From Halobacterium sp. DL1 (GTDB lineage: Archaea; Halobacteriota; Halobacteria; Halobacteriales; Halobacteriaceae): a stretch of DNA of 24,000 nt. Location: contig CP007060.1 in NCBI GenBank assembly GCA_000230955.3, forward strand, positions 2,276,216-2,300,215, written 5' to 3'. Within the stretch, counting starts at the first letter, position 1. Each line of letters starts with the position of its first letter. Under the pieces are notes generated by a model. It had not been told where the DNA came from, searched no databases, and was given only the letters and a program-made list of their open reading frames with translations. Of the stretch, positions 3 to 16,974 are shown one piece after another. The position numbers and the translations under genes are program-made.

Positions 3-785
3 GACGCACAGGCCACCGAGGAAGCGGCAGACCCGACCCCCGCTGAGCGCGTCCGCGCCGCGGTCACGGAACGCGGGCGAAACGGGACGGCGGCCGCCGC
101 GGCCGGCGGCCTCCTCTTCGTCAGTGGCGGGCGAGCGGTCGCACGTCGGCGACGCCGGGTGGCCGCACTCCTGCTCGGCGCTGGCGCCCTGGCCGTGGCC
201 GTGCTCCAGCGCCGACGCTCGGGCGAGGACACCGAGAGCGTGGAGGGGCCCGGGTCGACCGACGCCGCGGACGGGGAGTCGACGGTGTCCGCCGAGGCGT
301 ACGCCCACCGGATGGCAGCCAGCACGATGAACCGGACCCGGGCGGGGCCCCGGGGCGTCGACGGGGAACCAGCGGTCGACACCGACACCAACCCCGACGA
401 GGGTCGCGTCCGGTTCTCGACGGGACAGGACGAGGACGTGACGCGGAAACCCCACGTCGACGACGCCGACCCGAAGGACCCGCGGTACCCCGACGAGGGC
501 GACCCCGGAGCCGAAGGCCCCGTGGACGTCAGCCTCTCGAAGACGAAGATGACCGACGAACTCGGCAAGGTGGCGGGCCCCGACGACGACCAGGCCTACC
601 CGTCCCGGGAGGGGACCGACCCCGAGCCGATGTCCGAGCGAGCGCCACCGAGGTACGGCGAGGGTGGGGCGGAGGACCCGGACGGCGAAGAGGAAACTAG
701 CGAGGCGGACGAGGGAACGGCCGGCGCGGACGAGGGGCACGCGGCCGACGACGAGTCCGCAGACGAGGACGAGGACGCGACCTGA
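3..785 (+). CDS. 5'-truncated membrane-anchored, extremely acidic low-complexity protein (hypothetical)
   Basis: The frame is open from the window edge, with no stop between nt 3 and TGA 783-785, so the GTG at 159 used by the ORF track is probably internal. Two hydrophobic stretches (AAAAAGGLLFVSGG and VAALLLGAGALAVAVL) are separated by RRRRR. A D/E/P/G-rich tail of about 190 aa follows and ends DESADEDEDAT. No family recognised. Confidence 0.55.
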   Translation, partial: DAQATEEAADPTPAERVRAAVTERGRNGTAAAAAGGLLFVSGGRAVARRRRRVAALLLGAGALAVAVLQRRRSGEDTESVEGPGSTDAADGESTVSAEAYAHRMAASTMNRTRAGPRGVDGEPAVDTDTNPDEGRVRFSTGQDEDVTRKPHVDDADPKDPRYPDEGDPGAEGPVDVSLSKTKMTDELGKVAGPDDDQAYPSREGTDPEPMSERAPPRYGEGGAEDPDGEEETSEADEGTAGADEGHAADDESADEDEDAT

Positions 786-6414: not shown

Positions 6415-6948
6415 ATGGTCAACGCGTTCTGGCTGGACCGCGACCTCGACCAGGCGGCCCGCTGGCTGGTGGACGCCCACGTCACCAGCAGCGTCTTCGA
6501 ATGCTCGATGGTGCTCACGACGGCCGTCCAGTTGCACGGCTACCCAAGCGACGACGACCTCTACTTCACGCACCCCGACCATCCGCTCACGCAGTGGGCG
6601 GCGGACGCGTACGGGAACTGGCGGACCCTCCACGCGTACACCGAGGCGGCCCACGAGGAGTGGCGCTACCGGTGGGACCACGAGCCAGCGGAGTCCCACG
6701 GCTCCTGGGCTGTCGTCGAGACGCTCGACGGCGACGCGGTGGCCGACCTCGCGTGGCCGCGCGAGACGGCGCGCGACCCCCCGCAGGTGACGGGGAAGTG
6801 GACGGCGCCCGACTACGTCGACGCCTACCGCTACTACTACGCCAACGAGAAGCGCGACCTCTTCGAGTGGTCGAAGGACCGGACGGAGCCGCCGTGGCTA
6901 GCGGAGTACACGGTCGAAGACGACCCCGTCGACGCGAGCGGTGAGTGA
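6415..6948 (+). CDS. conserved hypothetical cytoplasmic protein (family not securely identified)
   Basis: 177 aa, acidic, Trp/Tyr/His-rich, with no TM segment. The N-terminal pattern FWLDRDLDQAARWLVDAHV..S..E....L, a central THP.HP...W and the C-terminal AYRYYY..EKR....W remind me of a small phage/bacterial protein family sometimes labelled pyrimidine-dimer glycosylase-like. That link is from memory only. Confidence 0.6.
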   Translation: MVNAFWLDRDLDQAARWLVDAHVTSSVFECSMVLTTAVQLHGYPSDDDLYFTHPDHPLTQWAADAYGNWRTLHAYTEAAHEEWRYRWDHEPAESHGSWAVVETLDGDAVADLAWPRETARDPPQVTGKWTAPDYVDAYRYYYANEKRDLFEWSKDRTEPPWLAEYTVEDDPVDASGE

Positions 6949-8203: not shown

Positions 8204-8908
8204 TCAGAGGATGTCGACCCGATCGAGCATCGCCCCGTCGACGTCCCGTGCCGCAATCGCGTCTAGCTGGTCGCGGGTTCGAATCGGCCACGCGACCACG
8301 TCCAGTTCCGCGTCGTGGGCGGCGTCCACGACGTCCGATTCGACGGCGAGGGAGTACGGAACCTCGACGAACGAACAGTCCAGCGCGACCGCGGATTCGA
8401 CCGCGTCTCGCTGTTCTGACTCGGTCACAGTACTCGGGTCCACGTCCTCGTCCTCGAAGTACGCGAACGAGACGTAGCCGGCAGCGGCGTCCCAGGAGAG
8501 AGCGGTGGCCTCGGTCAGCGCGCTCGTGTCCGTCGAGCAGAGGTAGACGTCGTGGTCGTACTGGTCGGCGACCCGTTTCACGTCGGCAGCGATTCCGTTC
8601 GTTTTCAGGTCGAGTTGTACGTCGACGTCCGGGGGAATCGTCCCGAGAGCGTCGGCCAGTGTGGGGACGTGTTCGTCGGTGTCCAGTACGGAGAGTCCAC
8701 GGAGCGTCTCGTAGTCGGTCGAATCGACCTGGTGTTCTTCGCCCGTCAGTGCCGCCGTCGTCGCGTCGTGGAAGAGAACGATCTCACCCGAACCACACTG
8801 GCGCACGTCGAGTTCCACGCGGTCGACGTGGTCGACGACCGATTCGATCGCGAGCAGCGTGTTCTCCGGGAACTGCTCCGCACAGCCCCGGTGAGCGATA
8901 GCGTCCAT
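8204..8908 (-). CDS. glycerophosphodiester phosphodiesterase (GDPD family)
   Basis: The GDPD catalytic N-terminal signature is AHRG....PENTL.A...........ELDV.....GEIVLFHD. I prefer ATG 8908 (MDAIAHRG) over the ORF-track start at 8956, because a TTATTG TATA-like element at 8933-8938 lies about 27 nt upstream of 8908. Confidence 0.82.
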   Translation of the reverse strand: MDAIAHRGCAEQFPENTLLAIESVVDHVDRVELDVRQCGSGEIVLFHDATTAALTGEEHQVDSTDYETLRGLSVLDTDEHVPTLADALGTIPPDVDVQLDLKTNGIAADVKRVADQYDHDVYLCSTDTSALTEATALSWDAAAGYVSFAYFEDEDVDPSTVTESEQRDAVESAVALDCSFVEVPYSLAVESDVVDAAHDAELDVVAWPIRTRDQLDAIAARDVDGAMLDRVDIL

Positions 8909-9229
8909 GGGCGAAAACTCACGGAGTGACGTCAATAACGTTTGGGAGTGTGTCACAGTGGCACGCGAAACGCCGGCCGCGTCGACCCACGTTCGGTCAC
9001 CGCTCCGCAGAGACCTGTGGATGGAACACTGCCTCGGCGCTCACGGCACACAATCTAGCCACCGAGAATGCGCTCGGCCGCTCGGTCGACTGCTTCCGGC
9101 CGGGGCATACGAGCAGGAGATGGGGTTCGTCGAGCGCTTCTGCACTCGATGGCGTGTCCCGCACAGCAGTATCTCTCCCCCTCGCATTCTACCACCTCGA
9201 ATGCTGGCTGAGCAGGCCGCGATGCTCGC

Positions 9230-10036
9230 TCAGATTGGGGAGTTCAGCGTCCCGAAGTACACCTGCCACGCGAGGGCGGATTTGGCGACTAGACTCAACA
9301 CGATGTACATCTTCTCTCCGAAGAGGTAGTTCTTCCACCGAGACACCTCCAGATACTGGAGGGCCATGTTCAGCGCGAAGAGGTTGAAGAAGACGAAAAT
9401 CGAGACGTAGATGTAGATGACGAACTCGGGGAACTCGCCGGCACTGGCCGTCACCGACCCGACGAACGCGACCCCGATGGTAATCCAGGGGACGATACCG
9501 GCGATAACACCCACCCAGTAGGGCGTCCAGTCCGTCTGTTCGGTCAGTTCGTTGCGCTGCTCCATCAGGAGACCGGAGAGATTCATCACCGCAACGAGGC
9601 CGAACAGCGCCACGAGCGTCCCGAGGTCCCACACGCCGGACAGCATCCCGATCACGACGATCATCAGCGAGGCGCTCACCGAGTATTCGTACCAGCGATA
9701 CGGATTCATGCCCCTGTCGAGATACCGGACGTACTTGTCGTACCAGACCGTCGCGATGGCGGTGTGAGCGAGCGCGGAGATGAAGAGGAATCCCGCGACC
9801 AGCAGCGGGAGGTTGGCGTCGACGAACGCGACCGTCTCCGGGAAGATCGACTGGCTTCCAGGGTCGAACCCGTACCTGGTGCGAGTTATCGGCCACAGGA
9901 CGGTGTCGGCCAGGAGCACCATCGCCGCCCCCTGCAGGAAGTGGAGGACAGCCATGACACTGTTCCACAGTCGGAGTCGACTGTCCCGTGCCGACTCGCG
10001 CCGTCCGGAGCTCGTCGTCGCACTGTGTGAGGACAT
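9230..10036 (-). CDS. heliorhodopsin (retinal-binding seven-TM protein, inverted topology)
   Basis: 268 aa with 7 hydrophobic helices. The sequence tracks the heliorhodopsin 48C12 sequence as I remember it along its whole length. Shared landmarks are:
- VLHFLQ (His32).
- SALAH (His91).
- RWYEYSVSASLMIVVIG (counterion-position Glu117, codon 9686-9688).
- GIVPWI.
- YIVLSLVAKSALAWQ (Schiff-base-position Lys252, codon AAA at 9281-9283).
The Arg-rich N-terminus (GRRESARDSRLR) fits a cytoplasmic N-terminus. Confidence 0.88.
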   Translation of the reverse strand: MSSHSATTSSGRRESARDSRLRLWNSVMAVLHFLQGAAMVLLADTVLWPITRTRYGFDPGSQSIFPETVAFVDANLPLLVAGFLFISALAHTAIATVWYDKYVRYLDRGMNPYRWYEYSVSASLMIVVIGMLSGVWDLGTLVALFGLVAVMNLSGLLMEQRNELTEQTDWTPYWVGVIAGIVPWITIGVAFVGSVTASAGEFPEFVIYIYVSIFVFFNLFALNMALQYLEVSRWKNYLFGEKMYIVLSLVAKSALAWQVYFGTLNSPI

Positions 10037-10064
10037 CGTACCAGTCTAATTACTCACTGGATTG

Positions 10065-10072
10065 AAATATAT
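10065..10072 (-). promoter_or_regulatory. candidate TATA box (ATATATTT on minus strand) for the heliorhodopsin gene
   Basis: The minus strand reads CCCAGATATATTTCAATCC, centred about 32 nt upstream of ATG 10036. It is a conspicuous AT-rich patch. The gene is separated from the upstream operon by 373 nt, so it probably has its own promoter. Confidence 0.35.
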
Positions 10073-10409
10073 CTGGGGGTGGCCACGACCGCGTTCACCC
10101 CCTCCCTGAAACTCCTAATCGGTGGGTCCATCGCCGTGTACCGGGTCCTGTGGGATGCCCATGGAGACACGGGCGACCCGTAAAAGACGGAGGCCTCGGC
10201 ACTCACGACTCACAAACTATCCATAGTGCCTGTGTTCAGGAGGGTTTCGAGCGCGCTCGTCTGGTTGCTGCTCGCCAGGCACGCGGGTGCCGCTTCAGGA
10301 CCGCCTCAGTCACGACGAGACTCGTCTCACGGTTGAGTTGTGGAATACACGTTCGGGCGACTTCCAGGAAACCGGTCCCGGAACCCCACTCCGGAAGCAA
10401 CCACCACAG

Positions 10410-11066
10410 TCAGAACGGCTCCCAGGCCGTCGGTCGCCGACCCAGCCCGCGGACACGGAACTCCATCTCGCCACTATCGGTATCCCGGAGTTCGATCACG
10501 CCGTCGAACTGTCCGGTGATCGTGTTGACGACCTGCTGGTCGTGGCTGTCGTTGCTGAGGGTGTAGATCCCCAGTCCCCCGGTTTCCTCGATCCGCTTGG
10601 TGTAGACGTGGAGGAATCTGAACACTTTGCTGCTGTCGAGATACTGCAACAGCGTCGATATCGAAATCAGCCCATATCGGATATCGGAGACGCCTCGATC
10701 CTCGAAGTGTCGGAACAGTTTCGCCATACTGACGCTGATACCGGTGAGATCGCCGGGCGAGGAGATTGACTCGATAGTCGCATCGAGGAGGTCCGTACCA
10801 TCTCCGCCGGAGGTGTCGACGATGCCGACGCGGTCCCGGTCCAGTGAGTCGACGTGCCGTTCGAGATCGGTGTAGACCTTCTCCGCACTTTCTGTGGAGA
10901 TGCAGAGAATACCGTCTCCGTCCTCGTATCCGGCAGCGAGCAACTCCAGGGCCAGTGCTTGCTTCCCGCTCATCGACGGGCCGACGACGACGATGTTCGT
11001 CCCCGCCGGGAGCTCGTCCAGATCGCCACCCGGCAAGGCACCGCTCACGTCGTATGCATCAGTCAT
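10410..11066 (-). CDS. KaiC/GvpD/RAD55-family RecA-superfamily protein with a degenerate P-loop
   Basis: 218 aa from ATG 11066 (MTDAYDVSG). The fold-level pattern is that of single-domain KaiC/RAD55-like proteins: G.N.vvvGp..sGK...a.e.l..g...g...l.ist.e. The Walker A reads GPSMSGKQ (Lys codon 10962-10964, Gln codon 10959-10961) rather than GK[ST]. The presumed Walker B strand reads RYGLISIS with no Asp. The ORF-track N-terminal extension to 11180 overlaps the upstream gene and is Arg/Ser/Thr-rich, so it is probably not translated. Confidence 0.75.
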   Translation of the reverse strand: MTDAYDVSGALPGGDLDELPAGTNIVVVGPSMSGKQALALELLAAGYEDGDGILCISTESAEKVYTDLERHVDSLDRDRVGIVDTSGGDGTDLLDATIESISSPGDLTGISVSMAKLFRHFEDRGVSDIRYGLISISTLLQYLDSSKVFRFLHVYTKRIEETGGLGIYTLSNDSHDQQVVNTITGQFDGVIELRDTDSGEMEFRVRGLGRRPTAWEPF

Positions 11067-11727
11067 CGCTTCCCTCGCTTGTCTCGAAGTCCCCGGTATC
11101 GGCGTCCTCGAAATTCTCCCCCTCGCCCAGTTCGACATCGTCGAAGCCCGAGTCCCCGTCTTCGACCTCGCGTACCGCACTGACGAAGTCGACCTCTGCG
11201 CCCATATTACCCAGGTTGTCGTCGACCTCGGTGCGCTGGGACTCGATACGGTCGAGTAGGTCCTGGTACACTTCGCTCTGCTCCAGTTCCGCTTCGGTTT
11301 TCTGTGCCTGCAGCGCGCCTCTGCGCGCCATCAGCGAGTGGTACTGCTGGAACGCGTCGTCGACACCGGCCCTGTCGAGCAACTGCTGGATGGTGTCGAG
11401 CAACTCCTGCCGTTCCGGGGGTTTGGTGATGTAGGCGTCGAACCCCATCTCGACCACGTCGAAATCGGGTTCGACCGCCGTCACCATCGCCACGCGACAG
11501 TCGATCGCTCGCTCGCGGATCTCCCGCAGTACCTGTTCCCCCGACAGTTCGGGCATCATCCGATCGAGTAACACGACATCGACTGTGTCGTCGACCGCAT
11601 CGAGTGCCTCCTGGCCGTCGGCTGTCAGTCTGACTTCGTACTGGTCCGAAAGCCAGAGTTCGTATCCCTCGGCGATTGTCTGCTCGTCCTCGGCGATGAG
11701 GACGACCGGTTGCTCCTGATCGGTCAT
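11059..11727 (-). CDS. response regulator, receiver domain + HalX domain
   Basis: The receiver domain reads VVLIAEDE...VDVVLLDRMMPELSG (phospho-acceptor Asp codon GAT at 11563-11565)...AMVTA...DAYITKP. A helical HalX-type region follows (FQQYHSLMARRGALQAQKTEAELEQSEVYQDLLDRIE), then an acidic tail. I prefer ATG 11727, which is preceded by an SD-like AGGTGG; GTG 11736 is the alternative. The stop at 11059-11061 overlaps the next gene's ATG. Confidence 0.88.
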   Translation of the reverse strand: MTDQEQPVVLIAEDEQTIAEGYELWLSDQYEVRLTADGQEALDAVDDTVDVVLLDRMMPELSGEQVLREIRERAIDCRVAMVTAVEPDFDVVEMGFDAYITKPPERQELLDTIQQLLDRAGVDDAFQQYHSLMARRGALQAQKTEAELEQSEVYQDLLDRIESQRTEVDDNLGNMGAEVDFVSAVREVEDGDSGFDDVELGEGENFEDADTGDFETSEGSDD

Positions 11728-11770
11728 TCTTCCCACCTACGTTCGGCCGTCCCTTTCATGAGTGTTATTG

Positions 11771-13876
11771 TCATGCATCCGCCTCGTTGGCTCTCAGTTC
11801 GATCACGAAACAGGCTCCATCAGCATCGCTGTCTTCGATTCTGACGTCACCGCCGTACTTTTCGATCATCACGTCGACAAAGAACAGCCCGAACCCGGAG
11901 CCGGTCTCCTTGGCGTGAGAACTCTCCCCGCGTCGGAAGACCGCCTCCGTTCGGTCGTCGTCGATACCCCGTCCGTTGTCTGAAATCCGTACGCTGACGG
12001 TATCTCCGTCGGTTTCGACACTCGTCTCGATCCGGAGGCCGTCGGTGTCGTTGTGTTCGATACCGTTGGTCAACACGTTGCCGAGGACCTCCGCGATCAA
12101 CTCGTCAGCCTCGACGCAGACGCCGTCCGGAATCGCTGTCTCGAAGGTTACGTCGGGATAGGCGGCCTCTAGTTCCGATATCTTCCGGTCGAGAATCGGC
12201 GAGACGTCGATCGATTCGAGTTGGTGTTCCTCCTCGGGCGTCGCGAGGGTCTCGACCACCTGTCGGACGCGCTTGGTGACCTCCGTCGTCGTGTTGCACC
12301 AGTCGACGATAGTCTGGGCGTACTGTGCCTGTTGGCCGTCGAGTTCCGCAGCGAGTAGTTCCCCGCGCATCTTGATGACGGTCATACCGTTCAGAACGTC
12401 GTGGCGCAGAATCGAGTTGAAGAACTCCATGCGTTTGCGCTGGCGCTGGAGTTCCGAAACGTCCATCGAGACGCCGATCACACTCGCCACCTCACCGTCG
12501 TCGTAGACCGGCGTATAGTGGGTTTCGAGCGTGATATCCCCGAGCGTGACGGTGTACCGGAACGACTCCCCGTCCAATGCGCGACTGGCCGCCTCGAGGA
12601 CTTCCTCGTGGTCGGCGTAGATATCGAAGATGTTCTCGCCGACCAGATCCTCGGGTTCGAGCCCCAACCGTGAGAGGATGTTGCCACGCATCTCCTGGAA
12701 GACACCGTCGCTGTCGAACCGGTAGAGGATGACCGGCGCAGCGTCGAGAATCCGACGCAGCGCCTCGCGCTGACTGGAGATGTCCGTCGAGACGGCCGCG
12801 ATGCCACCCTCGTAGGGATACGCCTGGACGTTGACCCAGTGGTCGCCGGACTCGTACTGGTACTCGAAGTTCTCCGGGTTGCCGGTCTCCATCACCCGTC
12901 GAAGTGTCCGTTCGACGACGGTCCCGCTGACTTCCGGGAACACGTCCCAGAGCAGCTCGCCCTCGATCTCCTCGACTGGCTTCCCGAAACGCTCTGCCAG
13001 TGTCTCGTTACAGAACCGAACGCGCCACTCGCTGTCGATGGTGTAGTGTGCTTGCGGGAGCCGTTCGACGAGTTGGCGGTACTGTCGTTTCTGCTGGCGA
13101 AGCGCCTCGTCGTTTCGCTTCCGGTCGGTAATATCGGTCACGATGCCGATTATCCGCCTGCCGCGGTCCCCGTCGGTGTGTACTTCTCCGCGTGCGTACA
13201 CCCACCGCTGTTCCCCGTCTGTGCGTTCGATCCGGTACTCCGTCTGGAACAGCCCGCTGCGCTCGACCGCGCGTTCGATCGCCGCCTCTACGACCGCGAG
13301 GTCCTCTGGATGGACTCGCTCGGCAAACGCTTCGAACGTTCCCTCGAACGTCCCCGGTTCGAGACCGAACAACCGCTCCATGCTCTCGGTCCAGATCACC
13401 TCGTCAGTCGTCATATCCCACTCCCAGACCCCGGTATCAGTCCCGGCCAGGGCGACTTCGAGCCGTCGCTCCGACGGGGTTGGTACGGTTTCGATCGCCT
13501 CGTCCGTAACCGGTCGGATCGTCGACAACAGCCGGGACTCGTCGTCGACGGTGATCGCATCGAGGACGAGTGTCACGCGCTGTTCGTTGCCGCTCGCATC
13601 GGTCAGCGTCGTCTCGATCTGTTCGGGGTGACTGCCGAGCGCACGGTCGATCGCCGCCTCGAGTGCCGATGCGTCCCCGGCAGCGAGGTCCGCAAGTGAC
13701 TGCCCCTCCAGTGCCGACGGATCGTCTCCGAGCACGTCGGCGTACGCCCGATTCACCGATTCGAGACGGGCCGAACCCGGTTCGTGAACTGCCATGCCCG
13801 CCGCCGCTTCCTCGAAGACTCGCTCGTGAAGTGAATCGGCCATTGCGGTGGTCTTCTCGGCACTTTCTTGCCCCAC
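11771..13876 (-). CDS. soluble multi-PAS sensor histidine kinase
   Basis: 701 aa with no TM segments and four PAS-like modules (about aa 13-125, 137-255, 262-372, 375-478). One is a PAS_3-like module reading GVWEWDMTTDEVIWTESMERLFGL...VHPEDL. The dimerisation/phospho-acceptor region is FFNSILRHDVLNGM (His492, codon CAC at 12401-12403). The HATPase_c domain has an N-box (EVLGNVLTNGIEHN), G1 (DNGRGI) and G2 (GSGFGL). The start is GTG 13876 or ATG 13843 (MADSLHERVFEE). Confidence 0.9.
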   Translation of the reverse strand: MGQESAEKTTAMADSLHERVFEEAAAGMAVHEPGSARLESVNRAYADVLGDDPSALEGQSLADLAAGDASALEAAIDRALGSHPEQIETTLTDASGNEQRVTLVLDAITVDDESRLLSTIRPVTDEAIETVPTPSERRLEVALAGTDTGVWEWDMTTDEVIWTESMERLFGLEPGTFEGTFEAFAERVHPEDLAVVEAAIERAVERSGLFQTEYRIERTDGEQRWVYARGEVHTDGDRGRRIIGIVTDITDRKRNDEALRQQKRQYRQLVERLPQAHYTIDSEWRVRFCNETLAERFGKPVEEIEGELLWDVFPEVSGTVVERTLRRVMETGNPENFEYQYESGDHWVNVQAYPYEGGIAAVSTDISSQREALRRILDAAPVILYRFDSDGVFQEMRGNILSRLGLEPEDLVGENIFDIYADHEEVLEAASRALDGESFRYTVTLGDITLETHYTPVYDDGEVASVIGVSMDVSELQRQRKRMEFFNSILRHDVLNGMTVIKMRGELLAAELDGQQAQYAQTIVDWCNTTTEVTKRVRQVVETLATPEEEHQLESIDVSPILDRKISELEAAYPDVTFETAIPDGVCVEADELIAEVLGNVLTNGIEHNDTDGLRIETSVETDGDTVSVRISDNGRGIDDDRTEAVFRRGESSHAKETGSGFGLFFVDVMIEKYGGDVRIEDSDADGACFVIELRANEADA

Positions 13877-14183
13877 AGTATAGTCGTGCCCCCAAATGCC
13901 AATACAGCAACCGTTGCTCCGGAGTACGGACCGCCGGCGTTAGTTATCCGACGCCGACGGCAGGTGATCACGTGGCCCCGTGCCGCTCGCAGAGGGTAGC
14001 AGACGCAATTCTCCGACTTCGTACACTTCTTCTCGCAAATGTATGGATAGAAAGCTGGCCTCGGCACTCATAGGGCTCGTCAGTCCGCGGGAGCCACCCC
14101 GGGTCGGCCCGGTGGCTTCGTCATCGGCCGGTCGGCAGTAGCGGCCGGACGACCAAAACGCCTCGGTCCTCCGGACGGGGCGG

Positions 14184-16130
14184 TCACTCCGTCAGCGCCG
14201 CAGAATCCCCGCTGCCGCTCTGGGAGTTCCAGAGGTCGGCGTAGATGCCGCCCGTGTCGACGAGTTCGTCGTGGGTGCCGAGTTCCACGATCTCGCCGCC
14301 GTCCATCACGACGATGCGGTCGGCGTCCTGGACCGTCGAGAGGCGGTGGGCGATGACGAACGCGGTGCGGTCGGCGGTGAGCCGCCGCAGCGACTCCTGG
14401 ATGAGCTCCTCGGTCTCCGTGTCGACGTCGCTCGTGGCCTCGTCGAGGACGATGATGGCGGGGTCGTTGAGGAGCGCGCGAGCGATGGAGAGCCGCTGGC
14501 GCTGCCCGCCCGAGAGTTTGACGCCGCGCTCGCCGATCTGGGTCTGGTAGCCCTCGGGCAGGTCGCGGACGAACTCGTGGGCCTCGGCGGCCTTCGCGGC
14601 GTCGAGCACGCGGCCGTCCACGCGGAAGTCGGTCGCCTCGTCGCGGGGCTGCTCTCCGCCGGGCGAGTCGTCGAGCGCGGAGAGGTCGCCGTACGCGATG
14701 TTCTCCTCGACGGTGCCGGAGAACAGGTAGGGGTCCTGTTCGACGACGCCGACGTGCTCCCGGAGGCCCTGGAGGCTGTACTCGCGGACGTCCGTGCCGT
14801 CGACGCGGACCGCGCCGGAGTCCACGTCGTAGAACCGCGGGACGAGTTTGACGAGCGTGCTCTTGCCCGCGCCGGTCGCGCCGACGAGGCCGACCGTCTC
14901 GCCGGGTTCGACGTCGAGGGCCACGCCCGAGAGCACCTGCTCGGTGTCGTCGTAGCCGAAGTGGACGTCGTCGAACGTGACGCGCCCGTCGACGTCGTCG
15001 GGGTCGACGGGGTTCTCGGGGCTGGTGACGGTCGGCTCGTGGCCCAGCACGCCGAAGACGCGTTCGGCGCTGGACTTCGCGCGCTGGTAGCGGTTGACCG
15101 TGACGCCGATGCGCCGCATGGGCGCGTACATCCGGCGCAGGAACAGGAAGAACATCGTGAACGTCCCCGTGGTGATGCCCGCGCCGAGGACGAGCGGGCC
15201 GGCGACGAACTCGCCGCGGATGACCATCTCGCCGCCGACGATGAGGATGCCGACGAACGCCACGCCCGTGAGCACGCGGATGGTGGCGAAGAACATGCGC
15301 CGGAGTTTGATGGCGGCGACCTTCTCGTCGTGGTAGGTCGCCGACTGGCCGGCCACGCGGTCGAGTTCGAAGTCGTAGCGGTCGAACGCCTTGATGACCT
15401 TCGCGCCGCCGATGTTGTTCTCCAGGCGGGCGTTCATGCGCGCGACGGTCTCCCGGATGCGCTTGTACCGGGGTTCGATCCACGTGAGGAAGAAGGCGCT
15501 CGACAGGCCGATGATGGGAACCGGCGCGAGCGCGATGACAGCCAGCGGCGGCGACACCCAGAACAGGACGGCGCCGATGCCGCCGACCGTCGCGACGACG
15601 CGGATTATCTGGCGTATCTCGTCGTTGAGGAACCGCTCGAGGCGGTTGATGTCGTTGTTCAGTATGGACATCATCGCGCCCGTCTGGTGGTTCGCGAAGA
15701 AGTCCAGCGAGAGGTGTTGCATGTGGTCGTACGTGTCGTTGCGGAGGTCCCGCTGTATCTTCTGGGCAGTCGACTGCAGCAAGTACCTGGAGACGAACCT
15801 CGTCACCGAGCGCACGACGTAGGCGAGCGCGGCGACGAGCGCGAGGCGGTGGAGGAGCGCGACCCGCGTCGCCTCCGACGTGACTGCCGCGCCGGGGACG
15901 AGGCCGAGCTGGGCGAGCAGCCCAGGTTCGCCCGACTGCAGGATGACGCGGTCGATGGCGGCGGCGACGACCAGCGGCGGGACGAGCCGCGAGAGCCGCG
16001 TGACGAGCGAGGACGTGATGCCGACGGAGAGGCGCGGCCAGTAGCGCCTGGCGTATCGGAGCAGGCCCACCATCGGGTGGCCCTCGACCTCCTCGCGGAC
16101 GTCCTCGAAGCCGCCGAGTTCGTCGGGCAC
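14184..16130 (-). CDS. ABC transporter, fused permease/ATP-binding protein (MsbA/type I exporter-like)
   Basis: The six-TM ABC_membrane domain is followed by Walker A (GATGAGKST), the signature ([15 protein letters not shown]), Walker B (IIVLDEATS) and an H-loop (AHRLST). The ORF-track start at 16397 overlaps the Nif3 gene in another frame and gives an Arg/Ser-rich extension. I prefer GTG 16130 ([14 protein letters not shown]), which has a CTTTTTG TATA-like element about 25 nt upstream at 16152-16158. ATG 16073 ([12 protein letters not shown]) is the alternative. Confidence 0.88.
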
Positions 16131-16212
16131 ACACGGGGTAGGCGTGGCACGCAAAAAGACCACACGGCTGCCCGGACGCTTACCGGTACGCCCCTGGGCG
16201 CCGACGGCCAGC

Positions 16213-16974
16213 TCAGATTCCGGTCGGGTGGTCGAGGAACGTCGTCTCCAGTCCCCAGTCGTCGGCGAGAGACTGGAGCGCCCGCACGCCGAACGTCTCG
16301 GTCGCGTAGTGTCCCGCGAGGACCACCGTGACGCCAGCCTCCCGGGCCTCGTGGTAGAGCTTCTGCTCGCCCTCCCCCGTGACGAAGGCGTCGACACCCG
16401 CCGCTTCGGCCTCGCGGAGCCAGTCCGCCCCAGCCCCCGTCAGCACCGCGAACTCCTCGAGTTCCTCGGGTCCGAAGTCGAGCACTCGGACGCCCTGGCC
16501 GCCCGTGTCGAGTTCTGATTCGAGCAGCCCCGCGAGTTCGTCGGCGGTGTAGGCTTCGGCGGCGGTGCCCCGCGTGCCGACAGGTTCGCCGTCCGCCTCG
16601 GCGAACGGCTGACGGTCCTCCAGGCCGACGAGGTCCGCGAGGCCGGCCGCGTTACCGAGTTCCGGGTGGCCGTCGAGGGGCAGGTGGGCCGCGTACAGCG
16701 CGCACTCGCCGTCGACGAGTGGCTGGATGCGCTCGTACTCGCGCCCCGTGACGGCGTCCAGCCCGCCCCAGACGACGCCGTGGTGGGTGACCAGCAGGTC
16801 CGCGTCCCACTCGACGGCAGCCTCGACAGTCTCGACGACGCCGTCCACGGCGAACGCCACGCGCTCCACCTCGCGCTCCCGCGGCCCGACCTGCAGGCCG
16901 TTCGTCGCGGCGTCGGTGTAGGCGTCGACGCGCAACCGGTCGTCGAACTCGGAGACGATCTCGGAGAGGTCCAT
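16213..16974 (-). CDS. Nif3-family dinuclear metal centre protein (GTP cyclohydrolase I type 2 homologue)
   Basis: The sequence DAATNGLQVG......V...AFAVDG....V..A....ADLLVTHHG..W......YAAHLPLDGHPELGN......GHY.TE is the NIF3/YbgI pattern. I prefer ATG 16974 (MDLSEIVSEF) over the track start at 16998. Confidence 0.85.
   Translation of the reverse strand: MDLSEIVSEFDDRLRVDAYTDAATNGLQVGPREREVERVAFAVDGVVETVEAAVEWDADLLVTHHGVVWGGLDAVTGREYERIQPLVDGECALYAAHLPLDGHPELGNAAGLADLVGLEDRQPFAEADGEPVGTRGTAAEAYTADELAGLLESELDTGGQGVRVLDFGPEELEEFAVLTGAGADWLREAEAAGVDAFVTGEGEQKLYHEAREAGVTVVLAGHYATETFGVRALQSLADDWGLETTFLDHPTGI

Follow-up and report, generated by a model that had tools for sequence, protein, structure and literature searches.

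What does the heliorhodopsin (HeR) of Halobacterium sp. DL1 do, and can anything be learned about its function from the DNA that surrounds its gene? We addressed this question using the 24,000-nucleotide stretch of the DL1 genome that carries the gene (contig CP007060.1, positions 2,276,216 to 2,300,215; hereafter, the window). An initial annotation of the window had proposed the HeR gene and had described the genome as being of haloarchaeal type. The latter description is confirmed by exact matches of HeR and three neighboring window proteins to Halobacterium sp. DL1, which has been cultured and belongs, as a minor member, to the community of the Antarctic Deep Lake. The identical HeR protein is found in the identical gene order on five public contigs, and its GenBank entry, AHG04535.1, is still labeled 'membrane protein'. 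The features of the window that are relevant to the question are listed in Table 1.

Table 1. Features around the DL1 HeR gene, numbered from the first nucleotide of the window
Feature	Position	Strand	Remarks
Glycerophosphodiester phosphodiesterase (GDPD) gene	8204..8908	(-)	234 aa call; first gene past the downstream core
Downstream repeat copy	9030..9061	(-)	TGGCTAGATTGTGTGCCG + core TGAGCGCCGAGGCA; 168 nt 3' of the HeR stop
HeR CDS	9230..10036	(-)	268 aa; ATG-to-stop ORF; GenBank AHG04535.1
Promoter-like motif	10067..10078	(-)	CCCCAGATATAT (consensus CCAYAGAnnTAT); 42 nt 5' of the HeR ATG
b-type 'left arm'	10147..10191	(-)	Directly past the upstream core; ~69% identity to the arm of locus L118 (hand alignment)
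Upstream repeat copy	10192..10223	(-)	Right arm TGGATAGTTTGTGAGTCG + 14-nt core TGAGTGCCGAGGCC
Decayed PIN-domain gene 3' end and the conserved element after it	10224..10338	(-)	Remnant
Three-gene operon (kinase, regulator, DUF7504/KaiC-like)	10410..13876	(-)	Fills the first inter-core interval
DUF7504/KaiC-like protein ORF	10410-11180	(-)	218 aa by public gene call; begins near 11066
Receiver-HalX regulator	11059-11736	(-)	222 aa by public gene call; begins near 11727
PAS x3 histidine kinase	11771-13876	(-)	690 aa by public gene call
'Flank a', conserved sequence past the sR-tMet core	13972..14056	(-)	Has TCTATCCATA, inverse of TATGGATAGA in the right arm
C/D-box sRNA gene sR-tMet	14057..14129	(-)	Rfam RF02163, 68.6 bits vs gathering score 50

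The DL1 protein and the heliorhodopsin family

The assignment of the gene to the HeR family proved correct: the ORF is intact, and its product matches the family profiles over their full length. We observed a match to the Pfam model PF18761 with an E-value of 1.6e-95 and a score of 319.5 bits (cut-off, 26.7) over model positions 1-242 of 242, and a match to the NCBIfam equivalog model NF038020, 'heliorhodopsin HeR', with a score of 357.4 bits (cut-off, 100) over model positions 1-244 of 244. Among proteins of solved structure, the best match is TaHeR (6is6; E=1.8e-77, 53% identity over 245 residues), after which 48C12 ranks with 43% identity. The GC content at the three codon positions is 0.55, 0.42 and 0.86, like that of other real genes of this window of 60-74% GC. 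An alternative start at Met28, which would give the 241-aa gene calls seen in several metagenomes, is disfavored because the alignments to the profile and to TaHeR start as early as residues 16-21 and because 269-aa homologs align over 100% of the query. As the initial annotation had stated, no retinal-biosynthesis gene was detected by Pfam in the ORFs that the scan covered, 20 of the 25 that the GC3-based call gives for the window. Judged from its sequence, the DL1 ORF is an intact, functional-looking heliorhodopsin (type-3 rhodopsin).

The hallmark blocks and the two histidines, His32 and His91, that had been quoted for the protein all lie at the positions given for them. The helix-3 block reads R114-W-Y-E117-Y-S-V-S-A-S-L-M-I-V127, the block G180-I-V-P-W-I185 is present, and the helix-7 block reads Y244-IVLSLVAK252SALAWQ258. 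Likewise, alignment to TaHeR and 48C12 supports the earlier placement of Lys252 at the Schiff-base position and of Glu117 at the counterion position. The S-x3-K pair of TM7, S248 and K252, falls on S237 and K241 of 48C12 and on the corresponding Ser and Lys of TaHeR, and Glu117 aligns with E107 of 48C12 and with the TaHeR residue that the mutant entry 7clj carries as Asp (E108D). S121 aligns with S111 of 48C12, the Ser one turn past the Glu counterion. Of the 37 named structural residues of 48C12, 30 are identical in DL1 HeR, including N16, H23, H80, S76, E107, S111, E149, S237 and K241 and the whole of the Schiff-base cavity. The cavity residues N16, H23, H80, N101, R104, Y108 and E230 of 48C12 correspond to N25, H32, H91, N111, R114, Y118 and E241 of DL1 HeR, His32 and His91 lining the polar cavity, and the key residues show no variation across 24 haloarchaeal homologs.

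The inverted, N-in topology that had been suggested from the positively charged N-terminus also stands as a prediction. A 19-residue hydropathy scan gives seven transmembrane segments, residues 1-28 hold five K/R against two D/E, and 13 K+R are found on the N-terminal side of the membrane against 2 on the opposite side, a bias that is consistent with a cytoplasmic N-terminus. An AlphaFold2 model of moderate confidence (pLDDT 72.6) includes an AB-loop beta-hairpin made up of strands 48-58 and 63-74. When this model was used as a Foldseek query, TaHeR was the top match (TM 0.78-0.85), 48C12 gave TM values of 0.73-0.80, and type-1 rhodopsins followed far behind with E-values of 3e-3 or worse (about 1e-2). 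Thus, the predicted fold matches that of TaHeR.

The likeness to TaHeR (Thermoplasmatales archaeon SG8-52-1; PDB 6IS6, 7U55, 7CLJ) extends to the Glu counterion, the Lys, the Ser-x3-Lys pattern, the two His residues and an Asn152-type pocket. DL1 HeR differs from TaHeR in its longer Ser/Thr/Arg-rich N-terminus, in an E-F loop that is 5 residues longer, and in its host, an aerobic extreme halophile; the DL1 protein is known from its sequence and a model. Compared with the pocket of 48C12 (PDB 6SU3, 6SU4, 6UH3), that of DL1 HeR carries V148 for N138, N152 for I142 and M224 for Q213. TaHeR shares these three residues, and such pocket variants have been described for other HeR subfamilies, archaeal ones included. 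The dimer-interface residue Y179 of 48C12 is Ala190 in DL1 HeR.

Closer relatives are abundant. More than 100 clusters of proteins are 70-90% identical to DL1 HeR, many of them from cultured haloarchaea, and at least 15 haloarchaeal homologs have been named 'heliorhodopsin HeR' by NCBI. The annotated haloarchaeal HeRs (Halosimplex, Salinibaculum, Halapricum, Halorubrum, Natronoarchaeum, Halobaculum and others) are equal to DL1 HeR in length and 70-90% identical to it; a kinase operon between sR-tMet and HeR sets DL1 apart from them. The HeRs of aerobic Halobacterota have been placed in cluster C12 (Bulzu et al. 2021). Given the public sequence, the homologs named by NCBI and this 2021 listing, the occurrence of HeR in Halobacteria is already known. 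The novelty of a haloarchaeal HeR had therefore been overstated in the initial annotation: such proteins are routinely annotated by NCBI and were described, together with nearby kinases, in 2021. Several HeR functions have been reported since 2022, and in the literature searched we found neither a characterized haloarchaeal HeR nor a paper on a DL1 rhodopsin.

Transcription and the repeats that flank the gene

The kinase, HalX regulator and KaiC-like genes lie 0.4-3.8 kb upstream of HeR on the same strand, and the start of the DUF7504/KaiC-like gene overlaps the regulator stop by 8 nt in an operon-like manner. A gap of 373 nt separates the DUF7504 gene from HeR. The promoter-like consensus CCAYAGAnnTAT occurs 33-43 nt before the HeR ATG in 13 of 53 haloarchaeal loci (the window counted), all of a close clade, and if its AT-rich part acts as a TATA-like box, the transcript would start a few nt before the ATG. 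Because of this gap, and because the motif is common to 12 other loci, HeR is most likely transcribed on its own, probably from the motif about 40 nt before its ATG.

A 31-nt direct repeat is present in both of the intergenic regions that surround HeR, at 9031-9061 and at 10193-10223. The two copies are identical at 26 of 31 positions, where 0 such pairs would be expected by chance, and they bound an HeR-bearing unit of 1.16 kb. The downstream copy ends 121 nt 5' of the GDPD start. The last 13-14 nt of the repeat are the 3' end (last 14 nt) of sR-tMet, a gene that lies 4 kb upstream of HeR: one copy of the core TGAGTGCCGAGGCC is found at sR-tMet, another at 10192-10205 and a third, which has 2 mismatches, at 9030-9043. 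Read from sR-tMet, the window thus presents an array consisting of the sR-tMet core, 3.9 kb that hold the kinase operon and the PIN remnant, a core, the 1.16-kb HeR unit, a diverged core and the phosphodiesterase gene. The array stretch has a GC content of 0.60-0.64, against 0.66-0.74 around it. The region made up of the upstream repeat and the PIN remnant (10192-10338) shows 82% identity over 146 nt to an intact counterpart in a metagenome locus (L114), and 79% to the one in Halostella (L009). We found no integrase family in the ORFs of the window that were scanned, and the small PIN, vapBC and HeR units are too short to hold an integrase.

Several other interpretations of the repeat were considered and set aside. 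It does not behave as a structured RNA, since single-sequence folds are no better than those of shuffles (z +0.41 and -0.53) and the RNAalifold energies for 49 distinct copies are -4.0 kcal/mol on one strand and -2.3 kcal/mol on the other. Nor does it resemble a second C/D-box sRNA, a permissive Rfam scan being empty at the copies and canonical C or D' boxes being absent. Differences among copies show, by eye, no synonymous bias of the kind that a small ORF on the opposite strand would have. The high conservation of the repeat is better explained by the recent spread of a PIN cassette that ends in it. A HeR-specific regulatory site was rejected on the metagenome counts given below. We also considered whether the core is the tRNA-Met attachment site of SNJ2 and rejected this, given that SNJ2 takes the 3'-distal part of the tRNA and not the anticodon-arm sequence that the sR-tMet guide would complement. 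Finally, the idea that 'flank a' is the unique native chromosomal flank of sR-tMet was dropped, since arms of the a type are also found ahead of cassettes within arrays (L155, L009).

The sR-tMet site in other haloarchaea

We then asked where else the repeat and sR-tMet occur together with HeR. The 31-mer upstream of HeR is identical at 30 of 31 positions in Halostella pelagica and in Halobacterium rubrum, and the copy downstream of HeR in Halostella at 29 of 31. Of 53 haloarchaeal HeR loci, which total 882 kb, 11 have sR-tMet at a distance of less than 10 kb from HeR. Ten of these were identified by Rfam (the window at 68.6 bits, nine others at 63.6-71.9) and one, L042, by its sequence signature only. 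Chance would account for about 0.3 such loci, assuming a single-copy gene and a genome of about 3 Mb. In all 11, the 3' end of sR-tMet points towards HeR. The two genes adjoin in Halosimplex carlsbadense (110 nt) and Natronoarchaeum (323 nt), and in Halolamina pelagica sR-tMet is convergent with HeR at a distance of 20 nt; sR-tMet lies farther away where additional core copies mark insertions. In Halapricum sp. CBA1109 (L011), 4.6 kb of DNA with 43-58% GC separates sR-tMet from HeR, and this insert, which is bounded by a 15-nt core, encodes a tyrosine recombinase (PF00589, E=3.3e-25). Direct repeats of the core that bound DNA were also observed in L028, in L009 and in 33 metagenome loci, as in L011. 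In two loci, L004 and L008, HeR directly follows sR-tMet and no downstream core is present.

A search for exact 21-mers returned 89 stretches from hypersaline metagenomes, and HeR is missing from 79 of the 80 loci examined, indicating that the repeat element is a general one. The metagenome copies fall into classes of recombinant junctions, a long form past a PIN-domain gene and a 33-nt form past a vapC gene, either of which is joined to any of several recurring right-hand flanks. Where a true sR-tMet lies upstream of the element (33 metagenome loci), it is always on the same strand, at a modal distance of about 920 nt. Arrays of 3-5 cores per contig follow sR-tMet, with up to five cores in 5.3 kb. 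Their units measure 0.8-2.8 kb and have PIN or vapBC genes among their contents; each unit opens with a related left arm and closes with a right arm, and in two unit families the left and right arms form inverted repeats on either side of the core. We found neither HeR nor the element on viral contigs.

Taken at the level of sequence, this layout is the anatomy of putative site-specific integration at the 3' end of a small-RNA gene, and the literature searched makes no mention of sR-tMet as an integration site. Two known systems resemble it in part. SNJ2-type elements integrate at the 3' ends of tRNA genes by means of tyrosine integrases and 14-bp att cores, and the likeness consists in the duplication of a 14-nt core from the 3' end of a small-RNA gene around the inserted DNA and in the tyrosine recombinase of one insert (L011). 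In contrast to those elements, the target here is a C/D-box sRNA gene and not a tRNA gene, recombination is deduced from sequence comparison, and many of the units are 0.8-2 kb long, integrase-free and stacked in arrays. Integron cassette arrays likewise consist of small one- or two-gene units, often toxin-antitoxin pairs, that are stacked beside a fixed anchor, and between the units stands a short, conserved site whose arms are inverted. Unlike integron arrays, the arrays at sR-tMet did not reveal a folded site resembling attC, there being no consensus structure (alifold -4 kcal/mol).

We tentatively suggest that the 3' end of sR-tMet is a previously undescribed haloarchaeal attachment site that gathers in tandem both small cassettes lacking an integrase, PIN toxins and vapBC pairs among them, and larger integrase-bearing elements, HeR being one such cassette in DL1 and Halostella pelagica. 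Each insertion at this site could conceivably leave behind a core copy of 14-33 nt, and it is possible, if short of probable, that HeR sits directly at the site in several other genera. Capture of HeR as a cassette at sR-tMet would explain both its patchy distribution among haloarchaea and its lack of conserved neighbors. HeR is either a cassette of the array or a resident gene next to which other units insert. The right-arm-plus-core copies downstream of HeR in DL1 and Halostella favor a cassette, and the loci that have no downstream copy leave room for a resident gene. Given that no integrase was found in the window ORFs scanned and that the downstream repeat is diverged (26/31), the DL1 unit may have inserted long ago and become fixed, or HeR may be a resident gene that gained its flanking copies afterwards.

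Candidate partners and the function of HeR

One account of the locus is that HeR serves as the light input to the adjacent two-component system by contacting the soluble PAS kinase, which would phosphorylate the HalX regulator, the KaiC-like protein having an accessory role. HeR, DUF7504, the regulator and the kinase are indeed four genes in a row on the same strand, and coupling between HeR and kinases has been proposed by Bulzu et al. (2021), whose supplementary figure places histidine kinases within 10 kb of the HeRs of Halobacteria. However, HeR is set off from DUF7504 by the intergenic gap, by a promoter-like motif of its own and by a repeat boundary of the recombination type, and orthologs of the kinase, regulator and DUF7504 are found beside HeR in none of the other loci. 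When 19 window proteins were compared by tblastn with 80 HeR loci, neither these three nor GDPD recurred beside HeR, and the distal creatininase/aminotransferase/agmatinase/NIF3 block was common to Halobacterium rubrum only. Clustering of the genes within ±5 of HeR in 49 haloarchaeal loci revealed no conserved protein neighbor, and we therefore gave up conserved synteny as a clue to function. PAS kinases do occur within 5 genes of HeR in 8 of 49 loci (the window included), where their positions and strands are scattered, but neither kinase nor receiver density rises towards HeR: matches to the kinase catalytic domain amount to 0.08, 0.14, 0.11 and 0.22 per 10 kb with rising distance, and receiver domains are nearly absent around HeR loci. 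An enrichment of kinases near HeR was accordingly rejected, their density being flat or lower close to the gene. Since the operon fills the previous interval of the array, it would be a neighbor by insertion and not a signaling partner. Its role as the output of HeR is thus unlikely, and the kinase/HalX/KaiC-like operon tells nothing reliable about HeR function.

A second local candidate is the fused ABC_membrane-ABC_tran protein encoded at 14184-16397, an exporter that HeR might modulate in the way that OcHeR modulates OmrDE. The literature counts ABC transporters among ten groups of recurrent HeR neighbors, a homologous exporter lies within 5 genes of HeR in 10 of 49 loci (the window included), and matches to the nucleotide-binding domain peak 2.5-5 kb from HeR. 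Against this, the exporters near other HeRs are only 40-46% identical to that of DL1 and stand at varied positions on both strands, and the DL1 exporter is 4 kb from HeR, beyond sR-tMet. ABC exporters of this kind are common in haloarchaea. We consider such a partnership quite improbable. The evidence of the window as a whole points to no partner of HeR and argues against the obvious local candidates. It is very improbable that DL1 HeR is instead a light-driven or light-gated ion transporter like the viral V2HeR3: proton transport has been reported for one viral HeR, but the DL1 protein belongs to the TaHeR-like archaeal group and has cavity and counterion residues as in the non-transporting 48C12 and TaHeR. 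The position of HeR between diverged repeats, beside the remnant of a PIN pseudogene and in a stretch of lower GC, might also mark it as a decaying, non-functional passenger of a dead mobile element. This is scarcely credible for an intact ORF with a host-like GC3 of 0.86, whose functional residues are all kept and are invariant among homologs, and whose protein is identical on five independent contigs.

We conclude that DL1 HeR is, with high probability, an intact retinal light sensor that is transcribed alone, that forms a 1.16-kb repeat-bounded unit at an sR-tMet hotspot, and that does not have the neighboring operon as its partner. By analogy with TaHeR and 48C12, the protein would bind all-trans retinal at Lys252 with Glu117 as the counterion, and would absorb green light and pass through a slow photocycle without pumping ions. 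Extrapolating from bacterial HeRs, it may act as a light sensor that alters the activity of a partner protein by direct contact. Its gene would be transcribed singly from the promoter-like motif and would constitute the unit between the 31-nt repeat copies, whose core derives from the sR-tMet 3' end, with sR-tMet serving as a putative hotspot for site-specific integration in haloarchaea.

As a HeR call alone, the finding adds little, given the public sequence, the equivalog model and the Halobacteria HeRs already in the literature. It is of modest but genuine practical value, since DL1 has been cultured and genetic and biochemical work is therefore feasible in a Halobacterium, a lineage with a mature retinal-protein biochemistry. 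A useful negative result is that the kinase/regulator/KaiC-like neighborhood should not be taken as the HeR signaling pathway. The unexpected result, and what looks like the new point of this analysis, is the presence of cassette arrays anchored at sR-tMet with HeR as one of their units. If this is true, archaea would have a new kind of gene-capture site in an sRNA gene that anchors repeat-bounded cassette arrays, and such arrays would show a route by which a photoreceptor gene can spread.

sR-tMet and the two heliorhodopsin groups

Of 53 haloarchaeal genomes, 11 have sR-tMet, a C/D-box sRNA gene, within 10 kb of the heliorhodopsin (HeR) gene, and in every one of these the 3' end of sR-tMet is oriented towards HeR. 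In three genera, sR-tMet immediately adjoins HeR. Haloarchaeal HeRs fall into one group with 72-90% identity to the DL1 protein and another with 61-70% identity, and we compared the two using loci L038-L049, L056 and L057 versus L001-L037. Where sR-tMet is nearby, it lies upstream and in tandem in the 72-90% group, and downstream and convergent in the 61-70% group. Halosimplex, Halovenus and Halolamina each contain both groups.

Core arrays, inserts and flanking sequences

The core TGAGTGCCGAGGCC, which equals the 3' end of sR-tMet, is arrayed in 3-5 copies downstream of this gene in hypersaline metagenome contigs (L086-L174). The units between core copies measure 0.8-2.8 kb, carry related left and right arms, and have PIN-domain proteins or VapB-VapC pairs among their products. 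A low-GC insert of 4.6 kb separates sR-tMet from HeR in Halapricum sp. CBA1109 (L011); it has 15-nt direct repeats of the core at both ends and contains a tyrosine recombinase gene.

The sequence of ~85 nt directly following the sR-tMet core, which we call flank a, is kept across genera. It includes TCTATCCATA, the exact inverse of TATGGATAGA from the right arm of the direct repeat element flanking HeR. Flank a may be a recombinase arm or a promoter, or may belong to the sRNA transcript. In many metagenome contigs, intact copies of the PIN-domain gene end in ...RGIQMLDEQ* and are followed by the long form of the element. In the DL1 window, the 3' end of this gene survives as a pseudogene remnant, and a 25-codon remnant occupies the corresponding position in Halostella.

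Coordinates of features in the DL1 window and in other loci
Feature	Sequence	Position	Strand	Remark
sR-tMet near HeR	window	14057-14129	-	also L004, L008, L011, L028, L038, L040, L041, L043, L057
Flank a	window	13972-14056	-	also L008, L009, L003
PIN-gene remnant	window	10224-10338	-	
Cores	L105	864, 2085, 4231, 5142, 6174		example array; others L118, L173, L154
Low-GC insert	L011	5269-9904		
Tyrosine recombinase	L011	8399-9334	-	
HeR start region	window	9955-10036	-	
Ocean-VII RNA-like match	window	10071-10115	-	
Regulator and KaiC-like genes	window	10410-11736	-	
Acidic protein, 208 aa	window	159-785	+	
Acidic protein, 177 aa	window	6415-6948	+	

The HeR start and neighboring genes

In several metagenomes, the gene calls place the start of HeR at Met28, giving 241 aa. 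The 268-aa start is better supported, because alignments to profiles and to structures start as early as residues 16-21. Immediately upstream of the HeR promoter-like motif, a G-rich hairpin weakly matches the Rfam family Ocean-VII RNA. At 20.5 bits, this match stays below the gathering score of 53.5 and is probably due to chance.

Two acidic proteins encoded in the window have no Pfam match; their coding signal is clear. Across HeR and the kinase operon (window 9000-14000), GC content drops to 0.60-0.64, compared with 0.66-0.74 on either side, and the GC3 of the genes is 0.77-0.86, compared with 0.89-0.95 in most other genes. In this operon, the receiver-HalX regulator gene overlaps that of a DUF7504/DUF7090 KaiC-like protein by 8 nt, and a triple-PAS kinase gene precedes both. 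Together, these three genes are a compact archaeal signalling operon.
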